From IMG/VR virus record IMGVR_UViG_3300047472_000248, positions 52,315 to 116,314 of that record: a DNA stretch of 64,000 nt. One strand, given 5' to 3'. The notes below the pieces were generated by a model. The model was not told where the DNA came from, did not search any database, and worked only from the letters and a program-made list of their open reading frames with translations. Position 1 is the stretch's first letter. Each line of letters starts with the position of its first letter. Below, piece after piece: positions 5,734 through 44,822 of the stretch. Source of the DNA: a virus (lineage: Duplodnaviria; Heunggongvirae; Uroviricota; Caudoviricetes). The position numbers were made by a program, and so were the translations under genes.

Positions 5734-6336
5734 ATGGCGGTCATCACCCTCACGGGCCCGACTTGCGCCGGCAAGTCGACGCTCGAAGCCCTGCTGAGGC
5801 GCACTGGCGTGTTCTGCAACGCAATCTCACACACGACGCGCGCACCGCGGCCGGGCGAGGTTGATGGCCAGGCCTACCACTTCGTCACGCCCCGTGCCTT
5901 TCAGGCACTGCTCGACGCCGGCTGGTTCGTCGAGAAGGTGGACTTCGACGGCAATCGCTACGCGATGAGCAAGGGGGCAATCCGCCATGCACTCGACCAG
6001 GCACGTCACGTCGCGATCGTCGTCGACCCGCACGGCGCCGACCAGATTCAGGCCTGGTGCGAAGAGCAGGGCATCCCGTCGGCGGCCGTCTGGCTCGACA
6101 CCGGCACGGAGACGCAGGCGCTGCGCTTCATGGAGCGCGTCGCGACCACCGACAACCTGGCGCCGCTCGTGACGCGCCTGGCCTCGATGCTCTCGGACGA
6201 GGTGCGCTGGCGCTACTTGGCGTCATCGAACCAGATCAGCCTGGAGCGCACCTACAACCTGCAGCTCTTCGGCATCGACCAGAGCAGGTCTGCCGAGGCC
6301 GTCCGCCTGGTCACCGAGCTCGCCGACAGCCTCTAA
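5734..6336 (+). CDS. gmk: guanylate kinase-like nucleoside monophosphate kinase
   Basis: P-loop GPTCAGKSTL; TTRAPRPGEVDGQAYHFV matches the GMP-kinase TTRxxRxGExDGxxYxF signature. Confidence 0.65.
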   Translation: MAVITLTGPTCAGKSTLEALLRRTGVFCNAISHTTRAPRPGEVDGQAYHFVTPRAFQALLDAGWFVEKVDFDGNRYAMSKGAIRHALDQARHVAIVVDPHGADQIQAWCEEQGIPSAAVWLDTGTETQALRFMERVATTDNLAPLVTRLASMLSDEVRWRYLASSNQISLERTYNLQLFGIDQSRSAEAVRLVTELADSL

Positions 6337-7970: not shown

Positions 7971-8771
7971 CTATGCCCGCGACACCATAAGCAGGTCGGT
8001 GCGCGGGTCGATCGCGGCACTCGAGAAGAACCCGGTCTCCACCAGGCGGCCGGCCGCCAGCTTCAGCTTGTAGCGGAACTTGCGCAGCTCGGCGATCTCG
8101 CTGCCGCACAGCTCGTGCAGCTTGGCCACGCTGTAGGGATACGGCTCCGCGTGGGTGATGTAGAAGCTGTGCAGCCACTTGGCCAGGGGCGACAGCTTCA
8201 GCCGCATCTTCCAGTCCAGGCGCGAGTAGGTCGCCGGCCCGAACAGGCTGATGATCTCGCGCTCGAGAAGGATCTCCCACTGCCGCAGGGTCGCCCCGCC
8301 GGCATCCTCCTTCCAGCGAAACGACCGGATCAGCGACCCGGTGTAGTTCTGCCGCGCGCCGGCGCCAGGTAGTTCAACGGTGACGGCCACCGCCGACGCC
8401 TTCAGCCGGTCGAGACAGTCGACCAGGCGCCGGTAGCTCGCGCTGTTCTTCGTCCAGCCCAGCTCGGTGAGCATCGAGTAGGCGGTGAACTGCACGTGCG
8501 TGCCCAGCGGGTGCATCCGGGCGATGTGCAGGATCTGCAGGAAGACATCCTCGTCGTCCTGCCGCAGCTCTTCGCCGGTGTAGGTGATCTCGATCCCACG
8601 CAGCGCCGCGATCGGCCGGCGCTTCAGGTTGTCCCGGGCCCCTGCCCTGACGTTGGCGACATTGAAGAGCGCCGAGCGGGCGAAGCAGTTGGGCAGGCCC
8701 CGAAGGTCGGCCGGCCAGATCGGCAGCTGGTCAGGCGAGACCGTCACGGTTGAACTACGTCGGGCGGGCAT
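7971..8771 (-). CDS. TrfA-like plasmid replication initiator
   Basis: 266 aa; LFNVANVR...LRGIEITYTGEEL...DEDVFLQILHIA resembles the RK2 TrfA family; start abuts the iteron array. Confidence 0.55.
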   Translation of the reverse strand: MPARRSSTVTVSPDQLPIWPADLRGLPNCFARSALFNVANVRAGARDNLKRRPIAALRGIEITYTGEELRQDDEDVFLQILHIARMHPLGTHVQFTAYSMLTELGWTKNSASYRRLVDCLDRLKASAVAVTVELPGAGARQNYTGSLIRSFRWKEDAGGATLRQWEILLEREIISLFGPATYSRLDWKMRLKLSPLAKWLHSFYITHAEPYPYSVAKLHELCGSEIAELRKFRYKLKLAAGRLVETGFFSSAAIDPRTDLLMVSRA

Positions 8772-8824
8772 TCGGGCTCCGGCAGCTGGATGCGCGCGAG
8801 TTTGCCGTCGGGCGCCCTGCCCTG

Positions 8825-8951
8825 TCCATAGCGCAACGGTGACGCTGCATAGTGCAAGGGTGGCGTCTCATAGTCGGAGGGTGACACCAGCGTCCTCTCC
8901 ATAGTCGAAGTGTGACGCCCTCCCCGTTCGAGCCATAGTCGAAGCGTGACG
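8825..8951. repeat. five direct iterons CATAGTCGAAGNGTGACGCC (candidate oriV)
   Basis: copies at ~8825, 8846, 8867, 8898, 8932; 21-22 bp period for the first three; immediately upstream of the TrfA-like gene. Confidence 0.7.
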
Positions 8952-8999
8952 CCCGGCCTGGGCGAACCACCCTTCTAAAAGCTGTCTTTTCTCTGGAGT

Positions 9000-9008
9000 T
9001 ATCCACAG
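9000..9008. promoter_or_regulatory. DnaA box TTATCCACA
   Basis: perfect consensus 9-mer between the iterons and an AT-rich patch (CCATTTATCAG). Confidence 0.5.
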
Positions 9009-9168
9009 GGGCGTAGTCCAACGGTGGCAAAGTTGTCCCGGTTATAGAGGGATTACCATTTATCAGCGGGTCACGGTTGCACTAGGCCGCCGTCACCGTT
9101 GCGCCGTCGCTCGCGCGAAACGGTCACCCTTGCGCCGTGCCTGCATTCTGCCGGGCGTCACGCTTGAA

Positions 9169-9507
9169 CTAGCCCCCTGCCCTCACCCGCTCCATCTTCT
9201 CGGCGATCGCCTCGAGGATGAACCGGTGCATCGACATCGACGGCAGCGTGTGCACCAGGGCCATCAGCTCGAAGTGATCCGTCTCGGGCATCTTCAGGTT
9301 CACCTGCTTGAGCACCCGGGGATTGAGGCCATTTGCAGGCGCTGCAGGCTTCTGTCGCTGGGTGGGTGGCGGGGCTGGCACTGGCGGGGGCTGTGGGGCC
9401 GCGGCGGGCTCTTCCTGGGGCTGGTCGGCCGTCAGGTTGGTCTTCGCCTGCTCGACGAACTCTTCTGGCGTGCGCGGCGGTTTGATTCGGCGCAGCGTCC
9501 CCGTCAT
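9169..9507 (-). CDS. ParG-like ribbon-helix-helix partition / centromere-binding protein
   Basis: 112 aa; disordered Pro/Ala-rich N-terminus and C-terminal RHH-like segment; translationally coupled to parA-like gene. Confidence 0.45.
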   Translation of the reverse strand: MTGTLRRIKPPRTPEEFVEQAKTNLTADQPQEEPAAAPQPPPVPAPPPTQRQKPAAPANGLNPRVLKQVNLKMPETDHFELMALVHTLPSMSMHRFILEAIAEKMERVRAGG

Positions 9508-10163
9508 GCGGCCTCCTTCGCGGTCTCGAACATCTCTTTGTAGAGCCGGCGCATCTCGAACATCGCCTTCTCGTCGCCCTTCCCTTGCTCGGTCACCGCC
9601 AGGCCGTCGCGTGCGGCCCGCCTGAAGGCGACGCGATCGCGCAGCACGGCATCGGCCAGCTGCACGTTCGTCAGGTCGCCCACGACCTCGCGCATGTCGT
9701 CCGCATCGGTCATGGTCGCGTGGGTCGGGGCGCAGTTCACGACCACGTAGGCGCGCAACTTCTGGTTGAAGGTCTGGACGTCGCCCACCACCCGATCGAT
9801 CGCGGCCAGGCCGTGGATGTCGAACTGGCTCGGCCGCGCCGGGATGAGCATCACCTGGGCGACGAGCATGGCCTGGCGCAGCTCGATCGAATCACGGCCG
9901 CCGGCGTCGATGACCACGTCGTCGTAGCGTGGCGAGAGCTTGCGCAGCTCCTCGGTGACGCCCTTCCCTTTCAGCTGGATGCAGCTGATCTTCGGCTCGA
10001 CGCCCTCCTCCGTTCGGATCTCCGCCCATGAGGTGGCGCTCTGTTGCGTGTCGGTGTCGACCAGCAGCACGTCGCGCCCCGCAGCCGCCCGGATGGCCGC
10101 CAGGTTCGTCGCGATCGTCGTCTTGCCAGTGCCGCCCTTCTCTCCGCCAACGAGGACTATCAT
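9504..10163 (-). CDS. parA: ParA/ParF-family partition ATPase
   Basis: deviant Walker A GGEKGGTGKTT; DTD motif; 219 aa, small type-Ib ParA. Confidence 0.8.
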   Translation of the reverse strand: MIVLVGGEKGGTGKTTIATNLAAIRAAAGRDVLLVDTDTQQSATSWAEIRTEEGVEPKISCIQLKGKGVTEELRKLSPRYDDVVIDAGGRDSIELRQAMLVAQVMLIPARPSQFDIHGLAAIDRVVGDVQTFNQKLRAYVVVNCAPTHATMTDADDMREVVGDLTNVQLADAVLRDRVAFRRAARDGLAVTEQGKGDEKAMFEMRRLYKEMFETAKEAA

Positions 10164-10467: not shown

Positions 10468-10977
10468 CTAAGCTGCCTTGCGATGCGACGTGCCCAGCGT
10501 GCGCGCCACTGCAGCATGTGCTGCCTTGCGCTGATCGCGGAGCTTTCGCAGAACAGGGATGAGCGCCTCGACAAAGGCAGGCTCCGCGGCCAGGTCGATG
10601 TCCATGTCCTGCAGCTCGTGGTTCACCAGACGCAGCAGGTTCGCATCCTTCTGCGAGACCATCCGGGTCGTCATGATTTCCTCCAAGGTCTTGTAAGTCT
10701 CGGGGGTGTATTCCTTCATGACCAGGCGAAAGAGATAGACGGGATCGCCGTCGATGGCCTTGCACAGCGCGGCAATCTTGTTGATCGGCAGCTTCATCTC
10801 GCCGGTCTCGATCATCGTCATGATGTTGCCGGTGGCATAGCCGAGCGTGGACGCGACTTCCCTGCGCGTCTTACCGCTGGCATCCATCAGTCGCGCGATG
10901 TAGTCGGAGACGGCGCCCTTGTATCCCCGCTCGCGCTCCTTGACTACCTCCGTCGATCCCTTCTTTTGCGTGGCCAT
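10468..10977 (-). CDS. HTH (XRE-family) transcriptional regulator, candidate repressor
   Basis: helix-turn-helix REVASTLGYATGNIMTMIETGEMKLPINKIAAL; divergent from early operon. Confidence 0.6.
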   Translation of the reverse strand: MATQKKGSTEVVKERERGYKGAVSDYIARLMDASGKTRREVASTLGYATGNIMTMIETGEMKLPINKIAALCKAIDGDPVYLFRLVMKEYTPETYKTLEEIMTTRMVSQKDANLLRLVNHELQDMDIDLAAEPAFVEALIPVLRKLRDQRKAAHAAVARTLGTSHRKAA

Positions 10978-10984
10978 GCTGTTC

Positions 10985-11268
10985 TTCCTTCCTTCAATAA
11001 AGAGGATAAATGACCGCTTGGCGGCCCTGCTTCCCTGTGGGTAGCGAGGGCATTATATGAGAGTCAGCGCTGAGTGATCAGCTCTAGACGTGCCAGATAT
11101 CGGGATTTACCTCTAGAAACTAGGGGGTCGCTTCTATCTGATCAGTCTCCCCTGACTGAGGGTGCACGTCAGACGACACCTACATTCTCCCTATAATGCA
11201 GGGGCTTCGAGACACCCCGTAACCATAGACTGCCAAGCAGTCAGCCCTGACTTAGGAGACATCGACAG
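10985..11268. promoter_or_regulatory. divergent switch region
   Basis: two CTCTAGA repeats; degenerate palindrome AGTCTCCCCTGACT at 11144; TATAAT at 11192; perfect palindrome AGTCAGCCCTGACT at 11239 overlapping RBS TAGGAGA. Confidence 0.55.
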
Positions 11269-11451
11269 ATGGCCGGCCAACTAAACGGAAAAGAAGTCAC
11301 GAGTGACGAGTTTGTTCGAGTCATGCAGTCAGCTGAGTCTGTAACACGCCTCGATATGGGGCTCGGCGACATCTACATCCTGAGGTTCAAAGCTGGCGAT
11401 CGTGCCGCGATCGCGATGGACGGGCGCTACGCCCTGGTCGACATCGGCTGA
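11269..11451 (+). CDS. first gene of rightward operon (60 aa)
   Basis: ATG 12 nt after RBS TAGGAGA; promoter-proximal position. Confidence 0.35.
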   Translation: MAGQLNGKEVTSDEFVRVMQSAESVTRLDMGLGDIYILRFKAGDRAAIAMDGRYALVDIG

Positions 11452-11536
11452 CGCATCGGCTGCTGTTGCAGCCCCGCCCCGAATCCGAGGGGCAATTTTT
11501 AGAGTTCGTTCATTGCAGCGAACGAAGGGGAGCGCG

Positions 11537-13762
11537 ATGCGCAAGGACATCATGGTGGTTCGGGAGTCGATCGGAAAGATCGTCACGCTCCTGACGGATC
11601 GCAAGATCAACGTAACACAGCGTGGCACCGACGCATACGTGCGCTACGCTCCGGACGGTCAGGTTCTCCAGCTCAACGTCCCCTACCTGCCCGATGATGC
11701 CGACGATACGCTGATCGCGGCGATCCAGGGCTTTCTGGATCATGAAGTCGGTCACGTTCTGCACACCGACCACAAGGTCGTGGTGTCGGCCGCGAAGCAG
11801 GGCACGCGCATCAAGAAGATGGCCAACCTCGTCGAGGACGTCTACGTCGAGAAGATGATGGCCAAGACATTCCCGGGCAGCGAGTCGAACCTCGAGCGCC
11901 TGCGTGAAGTCTTCCTGAACCGGATGATCAAGCCCGAGCTCGACAAGGCGATCGCCGCGGGCGACACGACCTTCGCGTCTGGCTCGCTGATGATCGTGCA
12001 GTTCCGGGCGTGGGGCGGGCAGCGCGCGTGCGCTGACTTTCTGAAGGCGAAGGCTGCCGTCTACGACCCGCTGCTGGCAGACCTGCGCGACGCCCTGGGC
12101 GCCGACATCGCCGAGCAGCTCGGGCAGACCCGCAGCAGCGCCGACTGCCTGCACCTGGCCAAGCGGGTGATCGCCCGGATCGAACAGTGGGAGGAAGACC
12201 GCAAGAAGAAGGAGATGGAGCGCCGCCGCAAAGAGCGCGAGGCAGCCAAGAAGGAAGAGGAGGAAAAAGAGCCACCGCCGCCGCCCAAGGACGACCCCCG
12301 CGAGGAGTCTGAAGAGCAGCCGCCCAAGGAAGGGGAGGGCGAAGAAGAGCCTCCAGAGGAGGCCGAACCGGGCGAGGGTGGCGAGGGCGAGCCGGCACCC
12401 GAAGAGGGCAGCTCGGAAGAGGAGGGCGAGCCCGCCCCGGGCGACGACGAGGGTGAAGAGCCTGCCCCCAGCGAAGAGCCCACGGAAGAGGGCGCACCGC
12501 CACCCGAACTGAAGCCGTCGGGTGAGGAGTCCGCCGGCGAACCCGAGCCCGGGGAAGAGCCTGAAGAAGATGAGGGTGCCGGCATGGGCGCCAGCGAACC
12601 CGAGCCGACCCCTGAACCCGGGGAGAGCAGTGCGGGCGCTGAGGAGGAGGGTGAGGAGGGTGAGGAGGGCACAGCACCGTCTGAAGAGCCGGCATCGGCG
12701 GCCGCCGAAGAGGGTGGGGAGGAAGAAGAGGAGGAAGACCTCGGTCCCGAGCCGGAACCGTCGTCGCTGCTGCCGGCGCTGGACGAAGCCGAGGGGACCG
12801 ACTTCAGCAAGGATCTGGCCAAGATTCTGGGCGAGGATTCCCGAGAGACTATGGTCAAGTCGGACTACTGCATCTTCTCCACCGAGTGGGACAAGGTCGA
12901 GATCTTCGAGCCGCCCGGCGCGGTGCCCGACCGCCAGGTCACCGACCTGGTGGAGACCACGACGTCGATGGTGGGCGTCATGGCCAAGAACCTCGAGCGC
13001 GCGATCGCCGCGATGACCAAGGTCGCCTGGAACCCCGGGCTGCGCCGCGGCCGCATCAACCCGTCCGCCCTGGCCAAGTCGGGCGTGGGCGACGATCGTC
13101 TCTTCCGCAAGCGCTACGAGCACCGGGCGAAGGACACGGCGGCGACCCTGCTGATCGACTGCTCCGGGTCGATGCAGGGCCCGAAGATGCGCACCGCTGC
13201 GCTGGCGGGCTACGCGCTGTCGATGGTGCTGGAGCGCCTTCGTGTGCCGCACGAGGTGGTGGGGTTCACGACGAGGATCTCCACCGAGATGGAGGCGGCA
13301 CTCGACCGTGAGCGTCGCAGTCACGGACGCTCCGTGAACTATTCGCGGGACGAGTCGCTCTACATGCCGATCTTCAAGGAATTCCACGAGCGGGTGACGG
13401 CAGTCGTCACGCGCCGTATGGCTTACCTGGTCCCTGGCTACCCCGAGGGCGTGATGCGGAACAACGTCGACGGCGAGAGCGTGCAGATCGCTGCGCATCG
13501 CCTGCGCCAGCAGCGTGCCAGTCGGCACGTCCTGATGGTGCTGTCGGATGGGCGGCCGGCCTGCTCGCCAGGCTATGGGCTGAACGAGCACCTGCAGAAG
13601 GTCGTTCGGAACGTCGAAGCGAGCGGCATCGATGTCATCGGCATCGGCATCGGCACCTCGGTCGTCGAGCAGTTCTATCCACGCAACGTCGTGGTCGACG
13701 ACATCAAGGAACTGCCGCAGGTCGTCATCAGCCAACTCGGAAAGTTGCTCTTGGCTGTGTGA
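11537..13762 (+). CDS. CobT-like von Willebrand factor A protein with long acidic E/P/G-rich linker
   Basis: C-terminal MIDAS LLIDCSGSM; ~250-aa low-complexity poly-E/P region; RBS AAGGGGAG; 11402 is the ORF-track start, 11537 is the preferred ATG. Confidence 0.6.
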   Translation: MRKDIMVVRESIGKIVTLLTDRKINVTQRGTDAYVRYAPDGQVLQLNVPYLPDDADDTLIAAIQGFLDHEVGHVLHTDHKVVVSAAKQGTRIKKMANLVEDVYVEKMMAKTFPGSESNLERLREVFLNRMIKPELDKAIAAGDTTFASGSLMIVQFRAWGGQRACADFLKAKAAVYDPLLADLRDALGADIAEQLGQTRSSADCLHLAKRVIARIEQWEEDRKKKEMERRRKEREAAKKEEEEKEPPPPPKDDPREESEEQPPKEGEGEEEPPEEAEPGEGGEGEPAPEEGSSEEEGEPAPGDDEGEEPAPSEEPTEEGAPPPELKPSGEESAGEPEPGEEPEEDEGAGMGASEPEPTPEPGESSAGAEEEGEEGEEGTAPSEEPASAAAEEGGEEEEEEDLGPEPEPSSLLPALDEAEGTDFSKDLAKILGEDSRETMVKSDYCIFSTEWDKVEIFEPPGAVPDRQVTDLVETTTSMVGVMAKNLERAIAAMTKVAWNPGLRRGRINPSALAKSGVGDDRLFRKRYEHRAKDTAATLLIDCSGSMQGPKMRTAALAGYALSMVLERLRVPHEVVGFTTRISTEMEAALDRERRSHGRSVNYSRDESLYMPIFKEFHERVTAVVTRRMAYLVPGYPEGVMRNNVDGESVQIAAHRLRQQRASRHVLMVLSDGRPACSPGYGLNEHLQKVVRNVEASGIDVIGIGIGTSVVEQFYPRNVVVDDIKELPQVVISQLGKLLLAV

Positions 13763-13789
13763 GATTTTTCTCGCTCGCCCGTTGCGATA

Positions 13790-13811
13790 AGTCAGCCCTG
13801 ACTGTATGATT
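13790..13811 (+). promoter_or_regulatory. AGTCAGCCCTGACT + TGTATGAT
   Basis: between the CobT-like and CobS-like genes. Confidence 0.5.
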
Positions 13812-13877
13812 GCCGAGAACCAGAGCGCATAGTTCGTTCTGTCGCATTTAGCTAAACCTTTTTTGGGGAGCACCTTT

Positions 13878-15086
13878 ATGAGCGAAGTCGCCACCGTCGA
13901 AGAACTCGACACCCGGATCAGCTGCGAAATCTGTGGTGCCAAGTGCCACGGCATTCAGACGCACCTGAAGGATGATCACGCCGACTGGACATTGGCACGC
14001 TACGAGAAGGAGTTCCCCGGCAAGCCGCTGCTCTCCGAGCTGGCCAAGATGAAACTCGCCGAGCACCAGGCCGCAAAGAAGGCTGCCGCAAACCCGGCGT
14101 CGTCATCAGTCAGCACTGACTCGAAGCAGCGCGCTGAGACGAAGTTCTTCCATGAAGTCTTCGGGCTGGGCATGGTGCCGGCGGCGCTCAGCACCCCGTC
14201 GAAGGACGGGAAAAAGAAGGCACGGCCGATCCCGATCACGACGCTGATCAACACGCCGGAATCGCAGCCGATGGTGCCGGCGATCGACCCGAACTACGTC
14301 TTCAACCTCGACGTCCTCAAGAGCGTGATGCTTGCCGCCGAGATGGGCGTCGCGGCCTATCTCTGGGGCCACGCCGGCACGGGGAAGACCTCCCTGTTCG
14401 AGCAGCTGTTCGCGCGGACCAACCGCCCGATGATCCGGGTGCAGCACACCGCCAACATGGAAGAGTCGCACATCGTCGGCCAGTGGGTGCTGCGTGAGGG
14501 CGAGACGGTGTTCGAACTCGGCCCGCTGCCGCTGGCCATGATCAATGGGTGGGTCTACCTCGCCGACGAATACGACTTCGGCCGCCCCGAGGTGCTGTCG
14601 GTCTACCAGGCCGTGCTCGAGGGCAAGGCGCTGGTGATCAAGGAAGCTGACGCGAAGAACCGCGTCATCAAGCCGCACCCGAACTTCCGCTTCGTCGCGA
14701 CGGGCAACACCAACGGCACGGGCGACGAGTCGGGCCTGTATTCGGGCACGAACATCCAGAACGCCGCCAACTACGAGCGCTTCGCCATCGTCGAGCGCAT
14801 GCCCTACATGGAGCCCGAGCTGGAGGCACGCCTCGTGTCGCAGCAGGCCGCCATCGCGATTCTCGACGCGCGCAAGCTGGTCGACTACGCCGGGCGCATC
14901 CGCACCGAGTTCGACAACGGCAAGGTGACCTCGCCGATCTCCCCGCGCTCGCTGATCTACGCCGGGAAGATCGGGATGATCCGCGCCAACTACCGCATCG
15001 GCCTCGAGAAGGCCTACATCAACCGCCTGTCCTCGGTCGACCGAGAGACGGCATTGCAATTCGCCCAGCGCGTTTTCGGAGCTTGA
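13878..15086 (+). CDS. AAA+ ATPase, CobS/MoxR-like
   Basis: Walker A GHAGTGKTS, Walker B-like VYLADEYD; N-terminal Cys/His cluster CEICGAKCHGIQTH. Confidence 0.65.
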   Translation: MSEVATVEELDTRISCEICGAKCHGIQTHLKDDHADWTLARYEKEFPGKPLLSELAKMKLAEHQAAKKAAANPASSSVSTDSKQRAETKFFHEVFGLGMVPAALSTPSKDGKKKARPIPITTLINTPESQPMVPAIDPNYVFNLDVLKSVMLAAEMGVAAYLWGHAGTGKTSLFEQLFARTNRPMIRVQHTANMEESHIVGQWVLREGETVFELGPLPLAMINGWVYLADEYDFGRPEVLSVYQAVLEGKALVIKEADAKNRVIKPHPNFRFVATGNTNGTGDESGLYSGTNIQNAANYERFAIVERMPYMEPELEARLVSQQAAIAILDARKLVDYAGRIRTEFDNGKVTSPISPRSLIYAGKIGMIRANYRIGLEKAYINRLSSVDRETALQFAQRVFGA

Positions 15087-15742
15087 GCATGACGGCAGTA
15101 ACCAAAGAGCAGTTCGCCAACGACGGCAGCTATGAGTCGGTCGAGCGCATGTTGCGCCAGCTGGCGGGCAAGTGCTTCAAGCGCGTGTCGGGCATGGGTC
15201 TTTCGATGGACTTCGATGACTGCATGGGCATCATGAACGTCGGCTATGCCGAGTCCCTGCGCACCTGGGACCCCGAGAAGTCCAAGTTCGCGACGTGGTG
15301 CCAGTTCGTCGGGCTGCAGCACTTCAACCGCGCGATCGCGAAGGAAGAGCGCGAACGTGCCGAGATGGGCATGGTGTCCTTCACCGACATCATGGGCTCG
15401 AGCGAGGAGGGCAGCGACGACTTCACCGAGTTCTTCGCGGCCGCCGAGTCCGATGCAGAAGAGGCGCCCGACGAGCGACGGGCCCGGTTCGAGCTGAACA
15501 TGGAGCGTCTGCGCACGCTGTCGCCGGCGGCCAAGCGCCTGGTCAAGGCGCTGATCGAGTCGGAGATGGCCGTCAGCCGCGAGATCGTCACGCTGCACAG
15601 CCTGACCCAAGCCCTGGGCATGGACCCCAAGACCGTCTCCGGCGTCTGCCGTGAGCTGAAGCACGTCTACAGCCTGACGAACCTGCGTGTGGTCGCGCCG
15701 GCCAGGCCGAAGGGCGAAGCGCAGGAGCAGACCGCGGCGTGA
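15083..15742 (+). CDS. sigma-70-family-like RNA polymerase sigma factor
   Basis: region-2-like FATWCQFVGLQHFNRAIAKEER (cf. FxTYAxWWIRQAIxRAI); C-terminal HTH-like region 4. Confidence 0.45.
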   Translation: MSMTAVTKEQFANDGSYESVERMLRQLAGKCFKRVSGMGLSMDFDDCMGIMNVGYAESLRTWDPEKSKFATWCQFVGLQHFNRAIAKEERERAEMGMVSFTDIMGSSEEGSDDFTEFFAAAESDAEEAPDERRARFELNMERLRTLSPAAKRLVKALIESEMAVSREIVTLHSLTQALGMDPKTVSGVCRELKHVYSLTNLRVVAPARPKGEAQEQTAA

Positions 15743-16317
15743 AACCCGTTTGCTATGGCATGGTGAGCATGCACGAGCCGGGCAGCCGCGTCTGCCAGGA
15801 ATGCCCGCATCAGGCCGGCTGCTCCAGCGCGGCCTACCAGCTGCTCGACCGGCTGCCCGACACGCCCGAGGTGCGCACGACGCGCCAGCAGCTCGCAGCG
15901 GTGCGCGCAGCGACCGCAGACTCGCCAGAGGGGCAGGGGAGGGAGGTGCAGCGCAGCAAGCGCGGCGTGCTCAGAATCGCCCTCACGGTGGCCGAGTTGG
16001 CGGCGATCGAGCGGTTGCCCGCGGCGGTCGGTGCGCGCGTCAAGACGCTGGCCGAGCGTGGCTGGTTTGCGTTCGCCCGGGCCGAGCTCCAGGCCGGCCG
16101 CAACCCCGCCCCGAGCGGGACGATGAAGGTGGCGATGGACGCGCTGCTCGCCGGCGGCTGCACCCGCAAGGGACTGATCCAGGCCTTCGTCACGCAGCTC
16201 GGCATCAAGCCCGCGTCTGCTGCCGTGCAGGCTTCGGTGCTGGTCTCCGTGCTGGCCTTCGGGAAGATCGCAGTGGACAACTACGGGAAGCTGGTCCCGA
16301 CGCCGAACAACAACTGA
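15739..16317 (+). CDS. Cys-rich hypothetical protein
   Basis: 192 aa; N-terminal CxxC...CPHQAGC. Confidence 0.45.
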   Translation: MKPVCYGMVSMHEPGSRVCQECPHQAGCSSAAYQLLDRLPDTPEVRTTRQQLAAVRAATADSPEGQGREVQRSKRGVLRIALTVAELAAIERLPAAVGARVKTLAERGWFAFARAELQAGRNPAPSGTMKVAMDALLAGGCTRKGLIQAFVTQLGIKPASAAVQASVLVSVLAFGKIAVDNYGKLVPTPNNN

Positions 16318-16329
16318 GAGACTGCCCCT

Positions 16330-16575
16330 ATGTCAGAAGTCACGATCACCATGCCCAAGGAACTCACGGGCGAAATGCTGCGCGCGGTGCGTGAGCATCC
16401 ACTCACGAAGGTCGAAGACCGCGACGAGATGAACCTGCGCATCGGCTGGCTGATCTGCGCCTGGGACGTGCTCGCGGAGCACCGCCGGCCGCCACCCGTG
16501 CCGTATCGACCGCCACAGCCGACCCCACTGGGGGCGATTCCCAACGATCCGAGAGTGAAGTGGTCCTGGAAATGA
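16330..16575 (+). CDS. hypothetical protein
   Basis: 81 aa; RBS AGAGACTGCCCCT; ATGA overlap with dnaE start. Confidence 0.45.
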   Translation: MSEVTITMPKELTGEMLRAVREHPLTKVEDRDEMNLRIGWLICAWDVLAEHRRPPPVPYRPPQPTPLGAIPNDPRVKWSWK

Positions 16576-19500
16576 ACCCCCTTCAGATCGCCCCATCGAT
16601 TCGCTCCGACTTCTCGATCGGCGAATCCTCTGCGCAGATCCCGAAGCTGGTCGACCGCGCGAAGGAGCTGGGCTACAAGGCGCTCGCGCTCGTGGACACC
16701 ATGAGCGTCTCGTCGATGCCCAAGTTCGCCAGCGCGTGCAAGAAGGCCGAGATCAAGCCCATCGTTGGCTGCACCGTCCGGGTCGTCAACGATCCCGCCG
16801 AGCGGGTGAAGGACCGCGAGAATGGCGGCTACCGCCTGAAGGTCTACGTCAAGACCGAGCGGGGCCTGCAGTCGCTCTACCGGTTGCTGACGACGGCGCT
16901 CCAGCCCGACCACTTCTACTATCACAGCCGCTGCTCGCTCGACGAGGTCCTGCAGCTCGAGGACGTGATCGTCACCACGGGCGACATGCACAACCTCTGG
17001 CACCGGCAGGACGCGGCCGCGATCGACAGCCACCTGATTCACCGCTTTGGGAACGACTACGGGGTGGAGCTGGTCGCGCTGAAGACGCCACTCTTCGACC
17101 GCCTGAACCGCACCGCCTGGGAAGTGGCACAGTCTCAAAGCCGCAACATCATCGTCACCCGGCCGGTCTTCTACCTCACGCCGGAGGATGCCGACAGCAC
17201 CGACGTGCTGCGGGCGATCTCGTCCAACACGTCGGTCGACAGCATCTTCCTCCCGCAGCCCTACGTGCGCGACATGGCGCTGCTCGACCCCAAGGACTAC
17301 CTGAAGCACCTGCAGGCGCTCGACGAGACGCTGGGCGCCAAGGTGGCAAGCCGCGGGCTGCACCACGTCAAGGGCATCGCCGACAACTGCACCTACGAAT
17401 TCAAGAAGCTCCCACCCTCCATGCCCAAGATGGCAGAGGACGAGTTCGTCACTCTCTGCGGCATCGTGCGCGACGGCTGGACCGAACGCTTCTCGAAGAC
17501 CGTCTGGGGCCACGCGCCGGCGCCCGCCGAGCTGCAGGTCTACAAGGACCGCCTCAGCTTCGAGCTGAGCGTCCTGAAGAAGATGGGCTTCAGCGGCTAC
17601 TTCCTGCTGGTGCACGACATCGTCCAGTGGTCGAAGGACAACGGCATCCGCGTGGGCCCCGGGCGGGGCTCCGCCGGCGGCAGTCTGGTCGCCTACCTCA
17701 TGGGGATCACTGACCTCGACCCCGTGCGCTTCGACCTCCTGTTCGAGCGCTTCATCAATCCCGACCGGATCGACTTGCCCGACGCCGACCTCGACTTCAT
17801 GTCCGGGCGCCGGCACGAGGTGATCGAATACATCACCAACAAGTGGGGCAAGGATCACGTCGCGGGCATCGTCAACTTCTCCACCCTGGGCGCTGCGTCT
17901 GCGCTGCGCGACAGCGCGCGCCTGCACGGCCTGAAGCCCTACGAGTATTCGTGCTCGAAGCAGATGGAGAAGGAGCACGGGGTCGCGCTCAGCCTCGAGA
18001 AGTCCGCCGAGCTGGTGCCCGACATCGAGAAATTCAAGCTGGACCGCCCGGTGATATGGAACCACGCGGTGCGCATCGAGGGCGCCAACCGCAACCTCTC
18101 GCAGCACGCCGCGGGCGTGGTCGTCGCCGGCGAGCCGATCGTCAACCGGGCGGTGGTCTCCACCCAGCCGGGGCACGCGGTCATCCAGTGGGACAAGAGC
18201 CAGGTCGAAGAGTTCGGCCTGATCAAGATGGACATCTTGGGCCTGACGACGCTCGACGTGATCGATGCGATCCTCACCTACGTGAAGGAGCGCCATCACA
18301 AGACGATCGACACGCTGCGGCTGCCGCTCGACGACGACAAGACCCTGAAGGCATTCGCCAAGGGCGACACCGTGGGGGTGTTCCAGTTCACGGGGTCGGG
18401 CATGCGCAAGCTGCTCAAAGAGATGGCGATGGGCGGGCCGCTGACGTTCGACGATGCGTGCGCTGCCACCGCGCTGTTCCGGCCGGGCCCGCTCGACGCC
18501 GGCCTGTGTGACCGCTACGTTCAGGTGAAGCAGGGAGCCGCGACGCCCTACTACGAGCACCCCGCGCTCGAGGAGTGCCTCAGCGACACCTTCGGCGTGA
18601 TCGTCTACCAGGAGCAGGTCATGAAGATCTGCCGGGTGCTCTGCGGGTTTACCCCGGGTGAAGCCGACGGTGTGCGCAAGGCCATCGGGAAGAAAGACCC
18701 GGTGAAGATGGCCGAATACGGGGAGCAGTTCGTCGCCGGCGCCGTCAAGGCAGGCATGGACAGCTTCCGCGCCGAGGCGCTTTGGGAGCAGATTCTGGGC
18801 TTCGCGGGCTACGCCTTCAACAAGTCGCACAGCTACGCCTACACGCTGCTCAGCTACACCACCATGTGGCTGAAGGTGAACTACCCGCTGGAGTTCTTCG
18901 CGGGCTCGCTGTCGGTGGTCGACGACTCGGACGCCCAGGCGATCCTGATCGCCGACGCGCAGAGCAGGGGCATCCGTGTGCTGCCGCCCGACGTGAACTA
19001 CAGCAGCGCGCGCATCGAGATCAAGGGCGAGGACGAACTCTACGCGCCGCTGCAGGCCGTCAAGGGCATCAGCAGCAACGTCGCCGCGTCGATCCTGAAG
19101 CTGCGCGAGGCCACCTCGGAGCACGTCCACGTCGGGCCGCCCGTGGTCAGAACGAAATCCCCGCTGACGATGACGGACTTCGATCCGGCGCGCCAGAAGG
19201 AGATTTTGGGGCGGGTCAAGGTCAACGCCGCGCACCGCGCTGCGCTCGATAAGGTGGGCGGGTTCTTCTCGATCACCGGTGGCGTGCCCCCGACGCACCC
19301 TGACCGCTTGCGCGACCGACTGGCACTCATGCCCGGGTTCACCGTCGAGACGGTGAAGGCCGATCGGAAGCTCACCGTCGAGCACCTGGCCAAGATCAAG
19401 ATCACCCGCCTGGTGGAAGAGGCGCGGACCTGCGAGGGCTGCTCGTTCAAGGGCAAGACGCACCCCGTGGTCCGCATGGGCGACGCGCCGAAGTTCATGC

Positions 19501-19961
19501 TGGTCTTCGACACCCCGAGCTACCAGGACGACCGGGCGGGCAAACTGCTCGCAGAGGGGAGCGACGAGCGCCCGGGCAACTACGAGGTCGTGCGCGCCGC
19601 GCTGAAGGGCATTGGGCTTCGGGTCGGCGACGGCTACTACACCGCGCTGGTGAAGGCCGCGAAGAACAAGGGCCAGAAGGAGCTGACGAACGAGCAGATC
19701 AACGGGTGCAGCAAGTTCCTGATGGAGGAGATTGCGATCCTGAAGCCGCCCGTCATCGTCGCCATGGGGAGCAATGCGGTGCGCTTCTTCGCGCCGGGTA
19801 TCAAGGGCTCGCCGGCTGACCTCGCCGGCAAGGCCATCTATCGCAGCGATCTGGACGCAACCGTCATCTTCGGCATCAACCCGGCGTCGCTGTTCTTCGA
19901 CCCGAGCAAAGAGGCGCTGATCGTTGCGGCATTCGACAAACTGGGCGAGCTTTTGAGCTGA
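16572..19961 (+). CDS. dnaE: DNA polymerase III alpha (DnaE-type) with C-terminal family-4-UDG-like domain
   Basis: PHP domain; [17 protein letters not shown]...[26 protein letters not shown]...DLDF polymerase core; C-terminal CEGCSF...FDTPS...[21 protein letters not shown]...GINPAS parallels UDG family 4 with GEAPG replaced. Confidence 0.85.
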   Translation: [1129 protein letters not shown]

Positions 19962-32479: not shown

Positions 32480-34819
32480 ATGCATTCCTCATGGGACACG
32501 CCGGCGCGTGTCTACGCCCCGGGCATCGGTGACGCCGTCGCCGACCGCACCGTCAACCGCAAGCTCGACCCCACCACCCGCCAAGAACTCCCGGCCTGGA
32601 CCGAGAAGGGCGCCGACCCGCGCCCGTTCGCCCGTGAAGTCTGGGCAGACGTCGCCAAGCGCGTCGCCCTGGGAAACACCGGCCTGCGCGACCAGGACGC
32701 CCCGTTCGAGTTCGAACCGCTGCACCACCACCTGCGCCAGGCATCGCTGCTGATGTCGGGCCGCCACCTGCAGCACGGCGACCTGCACCAGTCGACCCGC
32801 AACCAGGAAGTCTTCACGAACTGCAGCACGGCCGCCGCCAGCTTCCTCGAGTTCTACCTGCTGCTCAACGGCTCGGGCGTCGGCCGCAGCTACGACGACG
32901 CGATGATGCTCGTCGACTGGCGCAAGATGCCCAAGGTGCGCGCGTGCCTGCGCCCCGACCATCCGGACGTGGTGAGCGGCGAGATCGCCGACCCGAACGA
33001 CGAAAGCTACGGCGACTACGTGCACATGCACGTGATGCATGTCGAAGACAGCCGCGAGGGCTGGGCGAAGGCGGTCGAGAAGATCGAGTTCATGACCTGG
33101 CTCGGCGTGCACCGCGACGACGTGCTGCTGATCGACTTCTCGGATGTGCGCCCCCGCGGCGCCCCGATCGGTGGCATGCAGAACCGGCCGGCCAGTGGCC
33201 CGGGCCCGCTGATCGAAGCGATCCGCAAAACCGCCAAGCTGCGCGACGCCGGCATGGAGCCCTGGGAGGCCACCATGCACGCCGACCACTACTACGCCGA
33301 GTGCGTGCTGGTGGGCGGGGCGCGCCGGGCTGCCCGCATGGCGACGAAGAGCTGGCGCGACAAGAGCGTGCTGCGCTTCATCGACATCAAGAAGGGCGGG
33401 GTGCTCTGGAGCTCCAACAACTCCATCACGGTCGACGAGGAGTTCTGGGAGGGCGTGCGCAACGTGAAGCGCTTCGTCGATGCGGGTCACACGCGCATTG
33501 TGGCGACCGACCTCGAGTGGCATGCCTTCAAGGTCTTCCAGGCTACCACCAAAGCCTCCTACTTCCACAAGACCGGCGAGCCCGGCTTCATCAACGTCGA
33601 CAAGCTGACGCAGAAGAACGAAGGCGTCGAGATGCTGTTCGACGGCCAGTTCGCGGGCAGCAAGCGCTTCCAGCTCGAACCCGAGACGGAGATGCTGACG
33701 ATGGCGCTGGCATCGGTCTTCGCCAAGCTGCCGTTCTCGATGATCGTGAACCCGTGCGGCGAGATCCCGCTGTCACTGCTGGGCGGCTACTGCGTGATCG
33801 CGGACACCGTGCCCTACCACGCACAGCCGGTTTGGGGTCCTAGTTGGCGCAGCACCGAGCAGTGGCATGCAGCATGGGATCACGAGGCAGAGGCAGCCTT
33901 CCGCACGGGCGCCCGTGCGCTGATCCGCACCAACACGATGGACTGCCTCTACCACAAGGAAGTCCAGCGCACGAACCGCATCGGCGTGGGCTTCACGGGC
34001 ATCTTCGAATACGCCTGGGCCCGCTTCGGCTTCGGGTGGAAGGACCTGGTGGATGAGCAGCGCTCGCTTGCCTTCTGGCAGACGATGTCCCGCTTCAGCA
34101 ACGCCGCCGTCGACGAGGCACGCAGCTACTCGGCCAAGCTGGGCGTGGCGATGCCGCACACCGTCACGACTGTGAAGCCGGCCGGCACGACCAGCAAGCT
34201 CTTCGGACTGACCGAGGGGGCGCACCTGCCGAGCATGCGCAAGTATCTCCGCTGGGTGCAGTTCCGCAACGACGACCCGCTGATCGAGCAATACGCTGCC
34301 AAGGGCTACCCGATCAAGCGTCTGAAGACCTATAGCGGCACGACCGTGGTGGGCTTCCCGACGGTGCCGGAGATCTGCAAGCTGGGCATGGGTGACGCGC
34401 TCGTGACGGCAGGGGAGGCAACGCCTGAAGAGCAATACGAGTGGCTCCGGCTGCTCGAGAAGTATTGGCTTAACGGCTACGAAGACACCGTGCGCGGCGG
34501 AGACATCTGCGTGGGTGGCCACGGCTGTGCCGGCCAGGTCAGCTACACGCTGAAATACAAGCCGGAGCTGGTGAGCTTCGAGGACTTCCAGCGCACGCTG
34601 CTGGAGGGCCAGTCGTCCATCAAGTGCTGCTCGGTGATGCCGCAGACGGACACCTCCGCCTACGAGTATCAGCCCGAAGAGCCGATCAGCGACGAGGACT
34701 TCGACGCCTTGGTCGCACGGATCAACGATCCCGAGATGAAGCAGAGCATCGGTTTCGAGCACGTGGACTGCGCGTCGGGTGCCTGCCCTATCGACTTCTT
34801 GGGCAGCGAAGCCGCGTAA
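32480..34819 (+). CDS. nrdJ: ribonucleotide reductase, class II (adenosylcobalamin-dependent, NrdJ-like)
   Basis: 779 aa single chain; active-site MIVNPCGEIPL motif; C-terminal Cys pair. Confidence 0.75.
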   Translation: MHSSWDTPARVYAPGIGDAVADRTVNRKLDPTTRQELPAWTEKGADPRPFAREVWADVAKRVALGNTGLRDQDAPFEFEPLHHHLRQASLLMSGRHLQHGDLHQSTRNQEVFTNCSTAAASFLEFYLLLNGSGVGRSYDDAMMLVDWRKMPKVRACLRPDHPDVVSGEIADPNDESYGDYVHMHVMHVEDSREGWAKAVEKIEFMTWLGVHRDDVLLIDFSDVRPRGAPIGGMQNRPASGPGPLIEAIRKTAKLRDAGMEPWEATMHADHYYAECVLVGGARRAARMATKSWRDKSVLRFIDIKKGGVLWSSNNSITVDEEFWEGVRNVKRFVDAGHTRIVATDLEWHAFKVFQATTKASYFHKTGEPGFINVDKLTQKNEGVEMLFDGQFAGSKRFQLEPETEMLTMALASVFAKLPFSMIVNPCGEIPLSLLGGYCVIADTVPYHAQPVWGPSWRSTEQWHAAWDHEAEAAFRTGARALIRTNTMDCLYHKEVQRTNRIGVGFTGIFEYAWARFGFGWKDLVDEQRSLAFWQTMSRFSNAAVDEARSYSAKLGVAMPHTVTTVKPAGTTSKLFGLTEGAHLPSMRKYLRWVQFRNDDPLIEQYAAKGYPIKRLKTYSGTTVVGFPTVPEICKLGMGDALVTAGEATPEEQYEWLRLLEKYWLNGYEDTVRGGDICVGGHGCAGQVSYTLKYKPELVSFEDFQRTLLEGQSSIKCCSVMPQTDTSAYEYQPEEPISDEDFDALVARINDPEMKQSIGFEHVDCASGACPIDFLGSEAA

Positions 34820-35823: not shown

Positions 35824-36663
35824 ATGAAAAGACTCTTCTCCCTGTTCCTGATCGCGTCGTTCGCGCTGCTTGCGGGCTGCACCCGCATCGACAGCGGCAA
35901 CATCGGCATCGACAACACCCTCGGCCAGGTCAAGAGCGAAACGCTCAGCTCCGGCTACTACAGCACGGTCTTCAAGAACGTCCTCGAGATCAGCGGCAAG
36001 CAGACGCACATCGCCTTCGACGGGCTCAAGCCCAAGTCGAAGGACAACATCACGATGGACGACTTCGACGCCGACATCTACTACTCGATCAACTCGTCCG
36101 ACGCCCCCAAGATCCTGACACGCTTCGCCGGTGACATGCAGGCACAGCACGTGCCGGACGGCCAGCACGACGACGGCTCGATGCTGATCGGCAGCAACTT
36201 CGTCAAGCGAATGGCGCGCAGCGCGATCTTCGACGTGGCACAGGGGCACAACGCGGCCGACATGAACGCAGCCCGCAACGACATCGAGAAGGCGATCGCA
36301 ACGCAGCTGCAGGCAATGCTCGACGAGCACGCCGGCAAGGGGTGGTTCAAGGACGTCAACGTCACCGTGCGCAGCATCGTCCCGGACCGCAACCTGCAGG
36401 AACAGATGCGCCTGAACGCCGACCGCACCTTCAAGCTGGCCGCCAAACAGAAGGAGATCGAGCTTGCCAATGCCGAAGCGCAGCGCCTGGCAGCCGAAGC
36501 CCAGGGCGTCGCGAAGGCCAACGAGATCATCAGCGCGTCGCTGACGCCGCAGCTGCTCCGCATGCGTGAGATCGAGACGCAGGCCAAGTTTGCCAGCGCG
36601 GGCACCCACACCGTGATCATGGGCGGCAGTGGCGCAGTCCCGCTCGTCCAGGTCAGCAAGTAA
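35824..36663 (+). CDS. SPFH/band-7 family lipoprotein
   Basis: signal peptide with lipobox LLAGC; SPFH core plus coiled-coil AEAQRLAAEAQGVAKANEII. Confidence 0.6.
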   Translation: MKRLFSLFLIASFALLAGCTRIDSGNIGIDNTLGQVKSETLSSGYYSTVFKNVLEISGKQTHIAFDGLKPKSKDNITMDDFDADIYYSINSSDAPKILTRFAGDMQAQHVPDGQHDDGSMLIGSNFVKRMARSAIFDVAQGHNAADMNAARNDIEKAIATQLQAMLDEHAGKGWFKDVNVTVRSIVPDRNLQEQMRLNADRTFKLAAKQKEIELANAEAQRLAAEAQGVAKANEIISASLTPQLLRMREIETQAKFASAGTHTVIMGGSGAVPLVQVSK

Positions 36664-36750: not shown

Positions 36751-37671
36751 ATGACCACGCAGATCAGCGCCAAGGTCATCGCCGACAGCATCAGCGGCGA
36801 CGACATGCGGCTCACAACCCTCCAGCTCTGCTACCCGCGCTTCATCCACGCAGAAGCGAAGACCCACCGCATTCTGAGCGCGGACTCGGAGCAGGTCGTC
36901 GTGCACACCGGCTCGGCCGGGTTCATGGACGACCCGATGCTGTCGCGCAACGCATCCTCGAGCCGGGCGATCCCAGTCGCGAAGATGATCGAGCAGGTGC
37001 GCAACGACCCGGCGATGCCGGTGCACTGGGGTAAGAACGTCGCCGGCATGCAGGCGCGGGAAGAGCTCACCGGCGACGCGCTCGATGCTGTCAGGTCCTT
37101 GTGGCTTGCAGCTGCGCGTGGTGCGGCAGACCTCGCCGAAAGGATGATGCGACTGGGCGGCCACAAACAGGTCGTCAACCGCATCCTGGAGCCCTTTCAG
37201 TGGATGCACGTCATCGTGACAGCCACCGAGTGGGACAACTTCTTCGAGCTGCGCGACCACGAAGACGCCGAGCCCAACATCCAGGTGCTCGCGCGCTGCA
37301 TGAAAGAGGCGAGGGCGGCATCGACGCCGATCAAGCGCTACGCCAGCGAGGACGGGCGGTGGGAGTCGTCGTGGCACCTGCCCTACGTGGCCGACGCGGA
37401 GCGCGAGCTGTATCGTCTCGACGTGCTGCGCAAGGCATCGGTCGCCCGCTGCGCCCGGGTGTCCTTCCTGAATCACGACGGCACTTACCCGGTGATCGCC
37501 AAAGACGTCGACCTCTACGACCGCCTGGTCGGCGCCCGGCCGCTGCATGCGAGCCCCACCGAGCACGTCGCGATGGCGCTGAAGCACAAAGGCTTCGTCA
37601 AGAACCTTCGCGGCTGGGAGCAGCACCGCGTCGCGGTCGAGAAGATCCACGCACCGAGCGTCTTCGCCTGA
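36751..37671 (+). CDS. flavin-dependent thymidylate synthase ThyX-like protein
   Basis: ThyX-like segments (ATEWDNFFELR cf. NxRxxxHFxxLR); the RHR-x-S signature is degenerate (THRILS). Confidence 0.4.
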   Translation: MTTQISAKVIADSISGDDMRLTTLQLCYPRFIHAEAKTHRILSADSEQVVVHTGSAGFMDDPMLSRNASSSRAIPVAKMIEQVRNDPAMPVHWGKNVAGMQAREELTGDALDAVRSLWLAAARGAADLAERMMRLGGHKQVVNRILEPFQWMHVIVTATEWDNFFELRDHEDAEPNIQVLARCMKEARAASTPIKRYASEDGRWESSWHLPYVADAERELYRLDVLRKASVARCARVSFLNHDGTYPVIAKDVDLYDRLVGARPLHASPTEHVAMALKHKGFVKNLRGWEQHRVAVEKIHAPSVFA

Positions 37672-44821: not shown

Positions 44822-44822
44822 T

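Follow-up and report, generated by a model that had tools for sequence, protein, structure and literature searches.

A CobT–CobS-like motor–adaptor pair heads the rightward early operon of a divergent SSU5-like phage

Three adjacent genes in a 64,000-nucleotide stretch of the Caudoviricetes record IMGVR_UViG_3300047472_000248 (positions 52,315 to 116,314; hereafter the window) encode a CobT-like protein with a VWA domain and its MIDAS (metal-ion-dependent adhesion site), a CobS-like AAA+ ATPase, and a sigma-like protein. The gene boundaries of this block (11537–15742) are those given by the initial annotation, and its reading of the first two genes as a phage-type CobT/CobS-like pair that heads the rightward early operon, a divergent repressor lying just upstream, is borne out by the gene layout and by Pfam, PDB-sequence and model matches. 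An upstream GTG at 11402 was rejected as the CobT start because homologues share the same N-terminus, which in the alignment also begins MKKDI. The CobS-like gene has an alternative TTG at 13863, and its exact 402-residue product is present in a public collection. The PHROGs families are phrog_1576 (5e-184, annotated "unknown") for the CobT-like protein and phrog_249 (4e-90, "porphyrin biosynthesis") for the CobS-like protein. As set out below, the pair belongs to the standard early "CobT-CobS-sigma-polymerase" block of the large SSU5-like family. The features discussed here are collected in Table 1.

Table 1 Coordinates of features in the window (aa, amino acids; nt, nucleotides; ORF, open reading frame; HTH, helix-turn-helix; UDG, uracil-DNA glycosylase)
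Feature	Coordinates	Strand	Details
CobT-like ORF	11537–13762	+	ATG start, stop at 13762; 741 aa
CobT-like N-domain, aa 1–215	11537–12181	+	helix α1, three-stranded sheet, helical bundle; HEVGH at nt 11741–11755, NLVEDVYVE at aa 97–105
Acidic Glu/Pro/Gly disordered linker	12182–12859	+	226 aa; from a composition scan; preceded by a K/E/R mixed-charge stretch
Shaft segment, aa ~495–532	13019–13132	+	KVAWNPGLRRGRINPSALAKSGVGDDRLFRKRYEHRAK; aligned to Brucella Q373–R413
VWA domain with MIDAS	13133–13762	+	DCSGS at nt 13157–13171, plus N643 and D671
CobS-like AAA+ ATPase ORF	13878–15086	+	402 aa
Predicted Ros/MucR-type zinc finger	13923–13979	+	ligands C16, C19, H29, H34 of the 402-aa protein
CobS-like MoxR-class AAA+ module	14268–15086	+	Walker A GHAGTGKT at nt 14367–14390, plus Walker B, sensors and arginine finger
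Sigma-like ORF	15083–15742	+	219 aa
Cys4 protein	15739–16317	+	192 aa; phrog_3616; N-terminal CYG...CQEC...C
DnaE (Pol III alpha) with C-terminal UDG-superfamily domain	16560–19961	+	Pfam; present in 72/80 loci
HTH (Xre-like) repressor candidate	10468–10977	-	Pfam HTH_31 1.3e-6; PHROG transcriptional regulator
Operator-like palindromes AGTCAG-N3-CTGACT	11062–11341		3–4 copies, at 11062, 11143, 11238 and 11326; from a repeat search
Small 60-aa ORF, Cro-position gene	11269–11451	+	between repressor and CobT
GC-rich hairpin with T-run	11476–11493		just upstream of the CobT start
TrfA-like initiator and ParA	7971–10163
Guanylate kinase	5734–6336
Class II ribonucleotide reductase NrdJ	32480–34819
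SPFH/Band 7 protein	35824–36663
ThyX	36751–37671
RtcB RNA ligase	44724–46073		7.7e-127

The ATPase matches Pfam AAA_5 (1.5e-17) and CbbQ_C. Its best sequence relatives among solved structures are Brucella CobS (5e-38), followed by the AAA modules of midasin (2e-25), CbbQ and NorQ, and its AlphaFold2 model (pLDDT, the predicted local distance difference test, 88.6) overlays the structures of NorQ and CbbQ (Foldseek E 1e-18, template-modeling score ~0.87). The catalytic residues of Brucella CobS are matched at Walker A (G164–T171), Walker B (D230/E231), sensor 1 (N277), the arginine finger (R301) and sensor 2 (R357); R236, which contacts the shaft described below, also aligns to Brucella CobS, and the fold is clade-6-like with H2 and PS1 inserts. 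The CobS equivalog profile TIGR01650 covers only residues 132–401, at 135.1 bits (E 2.9e-39) against a cut-off of 558.55. Because canonical CobS aligns only from residue 131, the phage ATPase carries an extra head.

A Cys/His cluster had been noted at the N-terminus of the ATPase, and it is real (CEICGAKCHGIQTHLKDDH). Its C-x2-C-x9-H-x4-H pattern is kept in 108 of the 120 closest homologues and in 72 of 80 loci from an IMG/VR survey (378 relatives located by CobS alignment, the best 80 loci being kept), and the zinc-finger segment occurs in all 80. The Pfam family ROS_MUCR (PF05443) matches 18 of 20 homologous N-termini (best 2.6e-6), a family profile of these N-termini matches the nuclear magnetic resonance structure of Ros87 (PDB 2jsp) at 3.5e-4, the zinc ligands falling in register, and the region is modeled with a pLDDT of ~95. 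The head is, as predicted from these matches, a prokaryotic zinc finger of the Ros/MucR type, sharing with Ros87 both the ligand spacing and the flanking residues I.C..CG....S...HL...H...T.EEY..K.P. Unlike Ros/MucR proteins, it forms a 50-residue head on an AAA+ ATPase, has no MucR oligomerization domain, and has a core that is not basic. Its presence suggests that the ATPase may be targeted to DNA or to a DNA-bound partner. Other lineages place different segments on the same ATPase. Residues 26–54 of cyanophage Syn19 CobS (locus L090 4854–5933) give sub-threshold matches to seven helix-turn-helix (HTH) families over one 25-residue stretch (E 0.005–0.08), and this N-terminal extension may be a DNA-binding head analogous to the SSU5-like zinc finger; these matches, which fall at the same position, also suggest targeting to DNA or a DNA-bound partner. 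Roseophage CRP-810 CobS (locus L005 1827–3680) has a third type of head, an N-terminal extension of ~350 residues with no Pfam match.

The CobT-like protein matches Pfam CobT_C (1.8e-38), CobT (3.9e-7) and VWA, and its C-terminal 300 residues match Brucella CobT (PDB 9uka_G, 1.6e-22). The LLIDCSGSM motif reported in this gene is present, and the MIDAS residues D541, S543, S545, N643 and D671 align with D422, S424, S426, N518 and D546 of Brucella CobT; the MIDAS is present in 74 of 75 IMG/VR loci. The segment preceding the VWA domain aligns with the Brucella CobT "shaft", which enters the pore of the CobS ring in cryo-electron microscopy structures (bioRxiv 10.64898/2026.07.21.739949). Shaft residues G501, R503, G505, L512 and D519 are invariant in five phages, and the stretch can also be aligned in the Syn19 homologue. 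The VWA and AAA+ folds, which the initial annotation had proposed for testing, are thus supported by Pfam and PDB profile matches for both proteins and by the model for the ATPase, and an AAA_5 plus CbbQ_C ATPase adjacent to a VWA gene with an intact MIDAS places the pair among MoxR-class AAA+/VWA systems. The CobT equivalog profile TIGR01651 scores 122.4 bits against a cut-off of 759.05 and is matched at profile positions 212–596 only, leaving the N-domain unmatched; both proteins lie 4–6 fold under the NCBI equivalog cut-offs (TIGR01650, TIGR01651).

The region between the folded domains is highly acidic (D+E 39%, P 15%, G 12%), and ~180 residues of it (nt ~12221–12760) are almost free of basic residues. 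An acidic linker of ~250 residues had been claimed; its presence stands, and that length proves somewhat generous for a segment of 226 residues of which ~180 are extreme. A linker is found in all relatives (75–269 residues, median 166), cannot be aligned between them, and in the window is near the top of the length range. The linker of canonical CobT is also disordered and spans ~90 residues (bioRxiv 10.64898/2026.07.21.739949), and that of the window is an enlarged form of it. The initial annotation had allowed that the low-complexity region might be an assembly artifact, and this is ruled out by its compositional nature and by the variable-length counterparts in all relatives, so the region is genuine; repeats in the underlying DNA are trivial (only 9 nucleotides, two to three times).

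Together, an N-domain, a disordered linker, a shaft and a VWA domain with its MIDAS make up the complete plan of a CobT protein. The N-domain has the same topology as the Brucella CobT_N of the preprint (bioRxiv 10.64898/2026.07.21.739949). A homologue search with this domain alone returned 3 proteins, phmmer and profile searches against PDB sequences did not reach Brucella CobT_N, and a Foldseek search of the domain model against the PDB gave no significant match. The domain carries an HExxH motif of the zincin kind, kept by 115 of 120 close homologues and in 59 of the 75 IMG/VR loci; a set of 19 diverse N-domains shows no variation at D68, H69, E70, H73, N97, E100, D101 and E105, and a PHROG "peptidase" family matches over the HExxH stretch. 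Four phage lineages (SSU5-like, roseophage CRP-810, Vibrio phage ICP2 and cyanophage Syn19) have HExxH at the same place, the Syn19 "peptidase" being a CobT homologue (hhalign 96.6% for the N-domain and 75.7% for the shaft/MIDAS part). Brucella CobT, which is experimentally validated, has no HExxH and reads GDSMALRQARH at that position, which was located by way of a Burkholderia CobT-like query and thus indirectly. The viral site may have a role in catalysis or metal handling. The Ros/MucR type of the finger, the intact HExxH, and the nature of the linker as an enlarged canonical feature had all been overlooked in the initial annotation.

Compared with the Brucella melitensis CobNST system (PDB 9ujv, 9uka; bioRxiv 10.64898/2026.07.21.739949), whose CobS and CobT are the best sequence matches among solved structures, the window pair shares the hexamer-type AAA+ ATPase with all its catalytic residues and the CobT plan of N-domain, disordered linker, pore-inserting shaft and VWA domain with the same five MIDAS residues. 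It differs in having no CobN partner, in its gene order (T then S), in ~130 extra N-terminal residues bearing the Ros-type finger on the ATPase, in an N-domain that keeps HExxH where Brucella has GDSMALR, in a linker of ~226 rather than ~90 residues, in scores far below the TIGR01650 and TIGR01651 cut-offs, and in a context of DNA replication rather than cob genes. The best structural matches of the ATPase, NorQ/NorD and CbbQ/CbbO, follow the same scheme, a single VWA/MIDAS adaptor for each AAA+ ring and a client protein that is remodeled; they act on nitric oxide reductase and Rubisco as clients, and they lack both an HExxH N-domain on the adaptor and a zinc finger on the ATPase. Midasin/Rea1 combines a long Asp/Glu-rich linker with a MIDAS head by which a client is pulled from a complex. 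Its AAA_5-type modules are alike, but six of them are fused in one giant eukaryotic polypeptide, which works on pre-ribosomes, and the resemblance is one of analogy and distant homology only.

No nucleotide match was found in the isolate-phage collection. By protein, the closest isolates (35–46% identity) are SSU5-like siphophages and phage-plasmids of ~105–120 kb, including Rhizobium phage RHEph10 and its relatives, Stenotrophomonas BUCTxx99/ANB28, Pseudomonas nickie-like phages and the SSU5 group of Klebsiella, E. coli and Salmonella. The best metagenomic CobS relative is 64–65% identical, and many relatives at 55–65% lie on contigs of 106–118 kb; the source contig of the window measures 116 kb and carries the order of this lineage, primase/ligase...CobT-CobS-(sigma)-Cys4-DnaE(UDG)-gp32-exo-RecA. 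RHEph10, SSU5, nickie and BUCTxx99 share the order ligase, CobT, CobS, small genes and DnaE, with primase and helicase further upstream. All 80 IMG/VR loci have the order [repressor], CobT, CobS, [sigma], Cys4, DnaE, gp32, exonuclease and RecA, with CobT itself found in 79 of them. A Ralstonia pickettii prophage has the window's order (integrase, HTH repressor on the opposite strand, a 70-residue ORF, CobT, CobS, sigma, hypothetical, DnaE-UDG, hypothetical, gp32, exonuclease, RecA); R. pickettii GCA_002849525.1 is among the host genomes with a prophage or plasmid form. Every one of the 31 isolate phages that have the DnaE–uracil-DNA glycosylase (UDG) polymerase also has the pair, and 882 representative clusters score E ≤ 1e-30, in keeping with core status. 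The plasmid collection adds hundreds of ~110-kb elements from Klebsiella, E. coli, Salmonella, Yersinia pestis (pMT1), Enterobacter, Acinetobacter baumannii and Cupriavidus, which correspond to the SSU5 supercommunity and AB group of Pfeifer et al.

This distribution contradicts the earlier impression that the T-before-S order, the zinc-finger head and the linkage to a sigma gene are unusual, as they are invariant or common across the SSU5-like lineage. T precedes S in all 80 IMG/VR loci, in RHEph10, SSU5, nickie, BUCTxx99 and the Ralstonia prophage, and in ICP2 and Syn19 as well. In ICP2 a few small genes separate CobT-CobS from the primase, helicase and polymerase genes downstream, and Syn19 carries the CobT-homologous "peptidase" and then CobS between gp46/47 and gp45/44/62; the pair therefore lies in or beside replication/recombination genes in three unrelated groups (SSU5-like, ICP2 and Syn19). 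Viral cobST clusters have been published from SSU5 (gp49/50), Y. pestis pMT1, cyanophages ("peptidase" plus cobS), ICP2 (gp41/42), CRP-810 and haloarchaeal viruses, with their function acknowledged as uncertain (PMC8651126). The window pair is the same in kind, a direct orthologue of the SSU5-group genes with identical synteny and a divergent newcomer only. Lineage members are already annotated as CobS/CobT or "porphyrin biosynthesis protein", the latter name being used for the pMT1 counterparts, and the window is a new divergent member typical of an already sequenced and annotated family.

Other records bear on these names and on the wider use of the machine. Escherichia phage Cyrano labels the pair "dimethylbenzimidazole phosphoribosyltransferase" and "cobalamin synthetase", and the CRP-810 paper gives the functions of CobS and CobT in the Salmonella nomenclature; in both cases the names are shared and the enzymes unrelated. 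A Burkholderia multivorans chromid (NZ_CP143551.1, L009 3917–6789) encodes a CobS-CobT pair in S-then-T order, with a short linker and neither zinc finger nor HExxH, whose N-domain is shared by only 8 plasmid or chromid records. Canonical CobST was considered for this pair and dropped, as its neighbors are a molybdopterin oxidoreductase and an IclR regulator, with no cob genes; it may be another non-cobalamin use of the CobST machine. Many plasmids of 136–290 kb, the examples listed being from Enterobacteria, Vibrio and Aeromonas, encode a VWA domain-containing protein that shares ~24.5% identity with the CobT C-domain across 90% of its length; these plasmids may be IncC-type.

The region upstream of the pair fits the "switch region" claimed for it, with an HTH repressor on the opposite strand, three to four operator-like palindromes, a 60-residue ORF and a hairpin followed by a T-run. 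A repressor homologue occupies the same position in 54 of the 80 related loci and in the Ralstonia prophage. The palindromes between the repressor and the small ORF are likely operators. The small ORF has no sequence homologue in the 80 related loci; in the Ralstonia prophage, the 70-residue ORF occupies its position. The hairpin could be a terminator or an attenuator, and the number of terminators in the window is not above the shuffled expectation.

The sigma-like gene reported downstream of the ATPase is confirmed. The window protein scores 24.1 bits against the 24.0 cut-off of Sigma70_r2, 12 of 13 homologues match this family (best 1.4e-8), and a family profile matches SigA (8h3v) at 2.5e-12, reaching the start of region 4; the predicted assignment to a divergent sigma-70-family factor is solid at the family level. 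Its start overlaps the CobS stop (TTGA) and the start of the Cys4 gene overlaps its own stop (GTGA), and these overlaps suggest translational coupling of CobS, sigma and Cys4. The Cys4 protein has no Pfam or PDB match; it is found directly upstream of DnaE in nickie (1e-8), RHEph10 (6e-5) and 59 of 80 IMG/VR loci and is a candidate polymerase accessory factor. The full-length DnaE-UDG fusion occurs in exactly the same 31 isolate phages as the zinc-finger CobS; more than 1200 other phage DnaE matches cover only ~74% of the fusion and do not include the UDG part.

More widely, the window has a GC content of ~65%, carries a long rightward operon, and contains no tRNA or Rfam family. Genes flanking the block encode a primase, an ATP-dependent ligase, a guanylate kinase, the TrfA-like initiator, ParA and the HTH repressor; those downstream encode the DnaE-UDG fusion, a gp32-like single-stranded DNA-binding protein, a 5'-3' exonuclease, RecA-like and Mre11/Rad50-like proteins, NrdJ, ThyX and RtcB, and the element also encodes an SPFH/Band 7 protein. 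The TrfA-like initiator and ParA fit a plasmid-prophage lifestyle. In the syntenic relative of Ralstonia pickettii (locus L007 6255–9343), which is chromosomal, an integrase is found instead; between the two, a shared phage backbone seems to have exchanged one maintenance module for another.

The best explanation, which we hold with moderate confidence, is that the pair is a CobN-independent remodeling or maturation machine, a MoxR-class motor and adaptor serving early phage replication functions. Of the roles put forward in the initial annotation, that of a chaperone or remodeler is the best supported. Because the ATPase, shaft and MIDAS parts are all conserved, we infer mechanics like those of CobST, NorQD and CbbQO, and its assembly and force transmission should follow the pattern of the Brucella CobST, NorQD and CbbQO systems. 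The CobS-like ring would grip the shaft of the CobT-like adaptor while the N-domain, by homology, docks on the ATPase lid, and ATP turnover would move the VWA/MIDAS head together with an acidic client residue held there. A Ros/MucR-type finger on each ATPase subunit may anchor the ring on DNA or on a partner, the VWA head could gain a long reach from the long polyanionic linker, and the retained HExxH would bind metal, with cleavage or metallation of the captured client as a possible result. Expression would come from the early rightward operon once the adjacent repressor switch releases, with DnaE following the coupled genes. The zinc finger, the retained HExxH and the HTH hints in Syn19 point to a client other than that of bona fide CobST, and we infer that the pair neither serves CobN nor inserts cobalt. 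It would instead handle a phage or host protein at the start of lytic development, in or near the replication/recombination apparatus. A role as a bacterial enhancer-binding protein-like activator of the adjacent sigma factor is ruled out, as the sigma gene is absent from SSU5 and nickie; a clamp-loader role is ruled out, as the fold is of the MoxR class and not the clamp-loader class; and DnaE as a universal client is weakened by ICP2 and Syn19, which use other polymerases.

Cobalt chelation was weighed most closely, as Liu et al. 2021 (PMC8651126) have already hypothesized that viral cobST hijacks host CobN. On that account the viral proteins would join host CobN, replacing host CobST or ChlID, and raise cobalamin for NrdJ. 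The Brucella chelatase subunits are indeed the closest solved relatives, the shaft, MIDAS and ATPase residues are conserved, and a class II ribonucleotide reductase lies in the same window, yet we consider this account improbable. No CobN-sized or CobN-like ORF exists in the 64 kb, where all ORFs of at least 380 residues fall in other families, an Rfam scan of the same 64 kb found no cobalamin riboswitch, and no cob genes occur in the 80 related loci; judged on the window and these loci, the CobN partner and cobalamin context of a functional CobNST complex are both missing, and the pair always lies in replication modules. The absence of CobN from the window, the sub-cut-off equivalog scores and the unmatched N-domain make cobalt insertion unlikely, as does the pair's core status in phages and phage-plasmids of E. 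coli, Klebsiella, Salmonella, Y. pestis, Acinetobacter and V. cholerae. The hosts in this list other than E. coli are not known to have the aerobic CobN route. E. coli itself needed foreign cobN, cobS and cobT for the chelation step (PMC6249242). The extra zinc finger on the ATPase, and an HExxH kept where bona fide CobT has lost it, also argue against chelation. NrdJ is present elsewhere in the window, as the initial annotation said, but the suggested link to B12 is not conserved. The closest phage NrdJ homologues (~54%) belong to Rhizobium phages P11VFA, RHph_I4 and L338C, all without CobT, suggesting that NrdJ was acquired separately, and RHEph10-group phages have CobST and no such NrdJ; this lack of co-inheritance again makes cobalt insertion unlikely.

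An ATP-driven, MIDAS-targeted metalloprotease, in which the HExxH N-domain is catalytic, the VWA domain captures and the AAA+ ring presents a target for cleavage during host takeover, is also unlikely; conceivable targets, from host or phage, include nucleoid proteins, repressors and replication inhibitors. The HExxH and NxxED...E motifs are invariant in the 19 N-domains and persist in the close homologues and four phage lineages described above, the PHROG "peptidase" match covers the motif, and canonical, non-proteolytic CobT has lost it. Against these points, the fold evidence is weak, and in solved CobST the adaptor's own shaft already fills the pore, which makes substrate threading unlikely. 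A defense or counter-defense function (superinfection exclusion or anti-restriction), expressed first after the switch and with the acidic linker acting as a DNA mimic, had also been suggested and is very improbable. The first position in the early operon and the very long polyanionic segment would suit it, and MoxR-VWA pairs do occur in bacterial conflict systems. The suggestion finds no support, as none of four proteins has a PADLOC match and the pair is strictly core and syntenic rather than part of a variable island; it also occupies replication modules in the lytic phages ICP2 and Syn19, and neither the length nor the sequence of the linker is conserved.

Several observations weigh against the remodeling machine that we favor. 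The window's own zinc-finger segment, taken alone, falls below every Pfam threshold, and with a zinc-finger core close to neutral in charge (mean -0.2) the sequence gives no evident sign of DNA binding. About 20% of relatives, including nickie (DSEISK) and BUCTxx99 (DREVST), have lost the HExxH histidines while keeping everything else; catalysis by this motif therefore cannot be the universal function, a point that also counts against the metalloprotease. All inference about the target is guilt by association, and strict co-inheritance with DnaE within one lineage is inseparable from shared ancestry. Finally, the pair may yet act as a chelatase in the probable host, which is Burkholderiales-like as judged from the Ralstonia prophage, the search for CobN having covered the window only.

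A broader reading, which we offer tentatively and regard as doubtful, is that viral "CobST" represents an ancestral type of machine, a MoxR motor with a VWA/MIDAS head and a zincin domain stationed at phage replication/recombination centers, and that cellular CobT is a derived pseudo-peptidase offshoot. The ring would be tethered to DNA by a Ros-type finger (or an HTH in cyanophages), the MIDAS head would seize a DNA-bound client, and the HExxH, still functional, would cleave or metallate it. No published description of the Ros-type finger, or of the contrast between viral HExxH and cellular CobT, was found in the literature searched, and both are leads rather than established findings.

Few "auxiliary metabolic genes" in marine and gut phages are cited as widely as cobS and cobT, which many metagenome studies count as viral B12 metabolism. 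A core pair within the replication module in hosts unable to chelate, the zinc finger and the kept zincin motif speak against this reading, which is probably mistaken in the SSU5-like lineage at least. SSU5 and the phage-plasmids of E. coli and Klebsiella, which are clinically relevant carriers of resistance genes, are tractable systems in which the pair can be studied.

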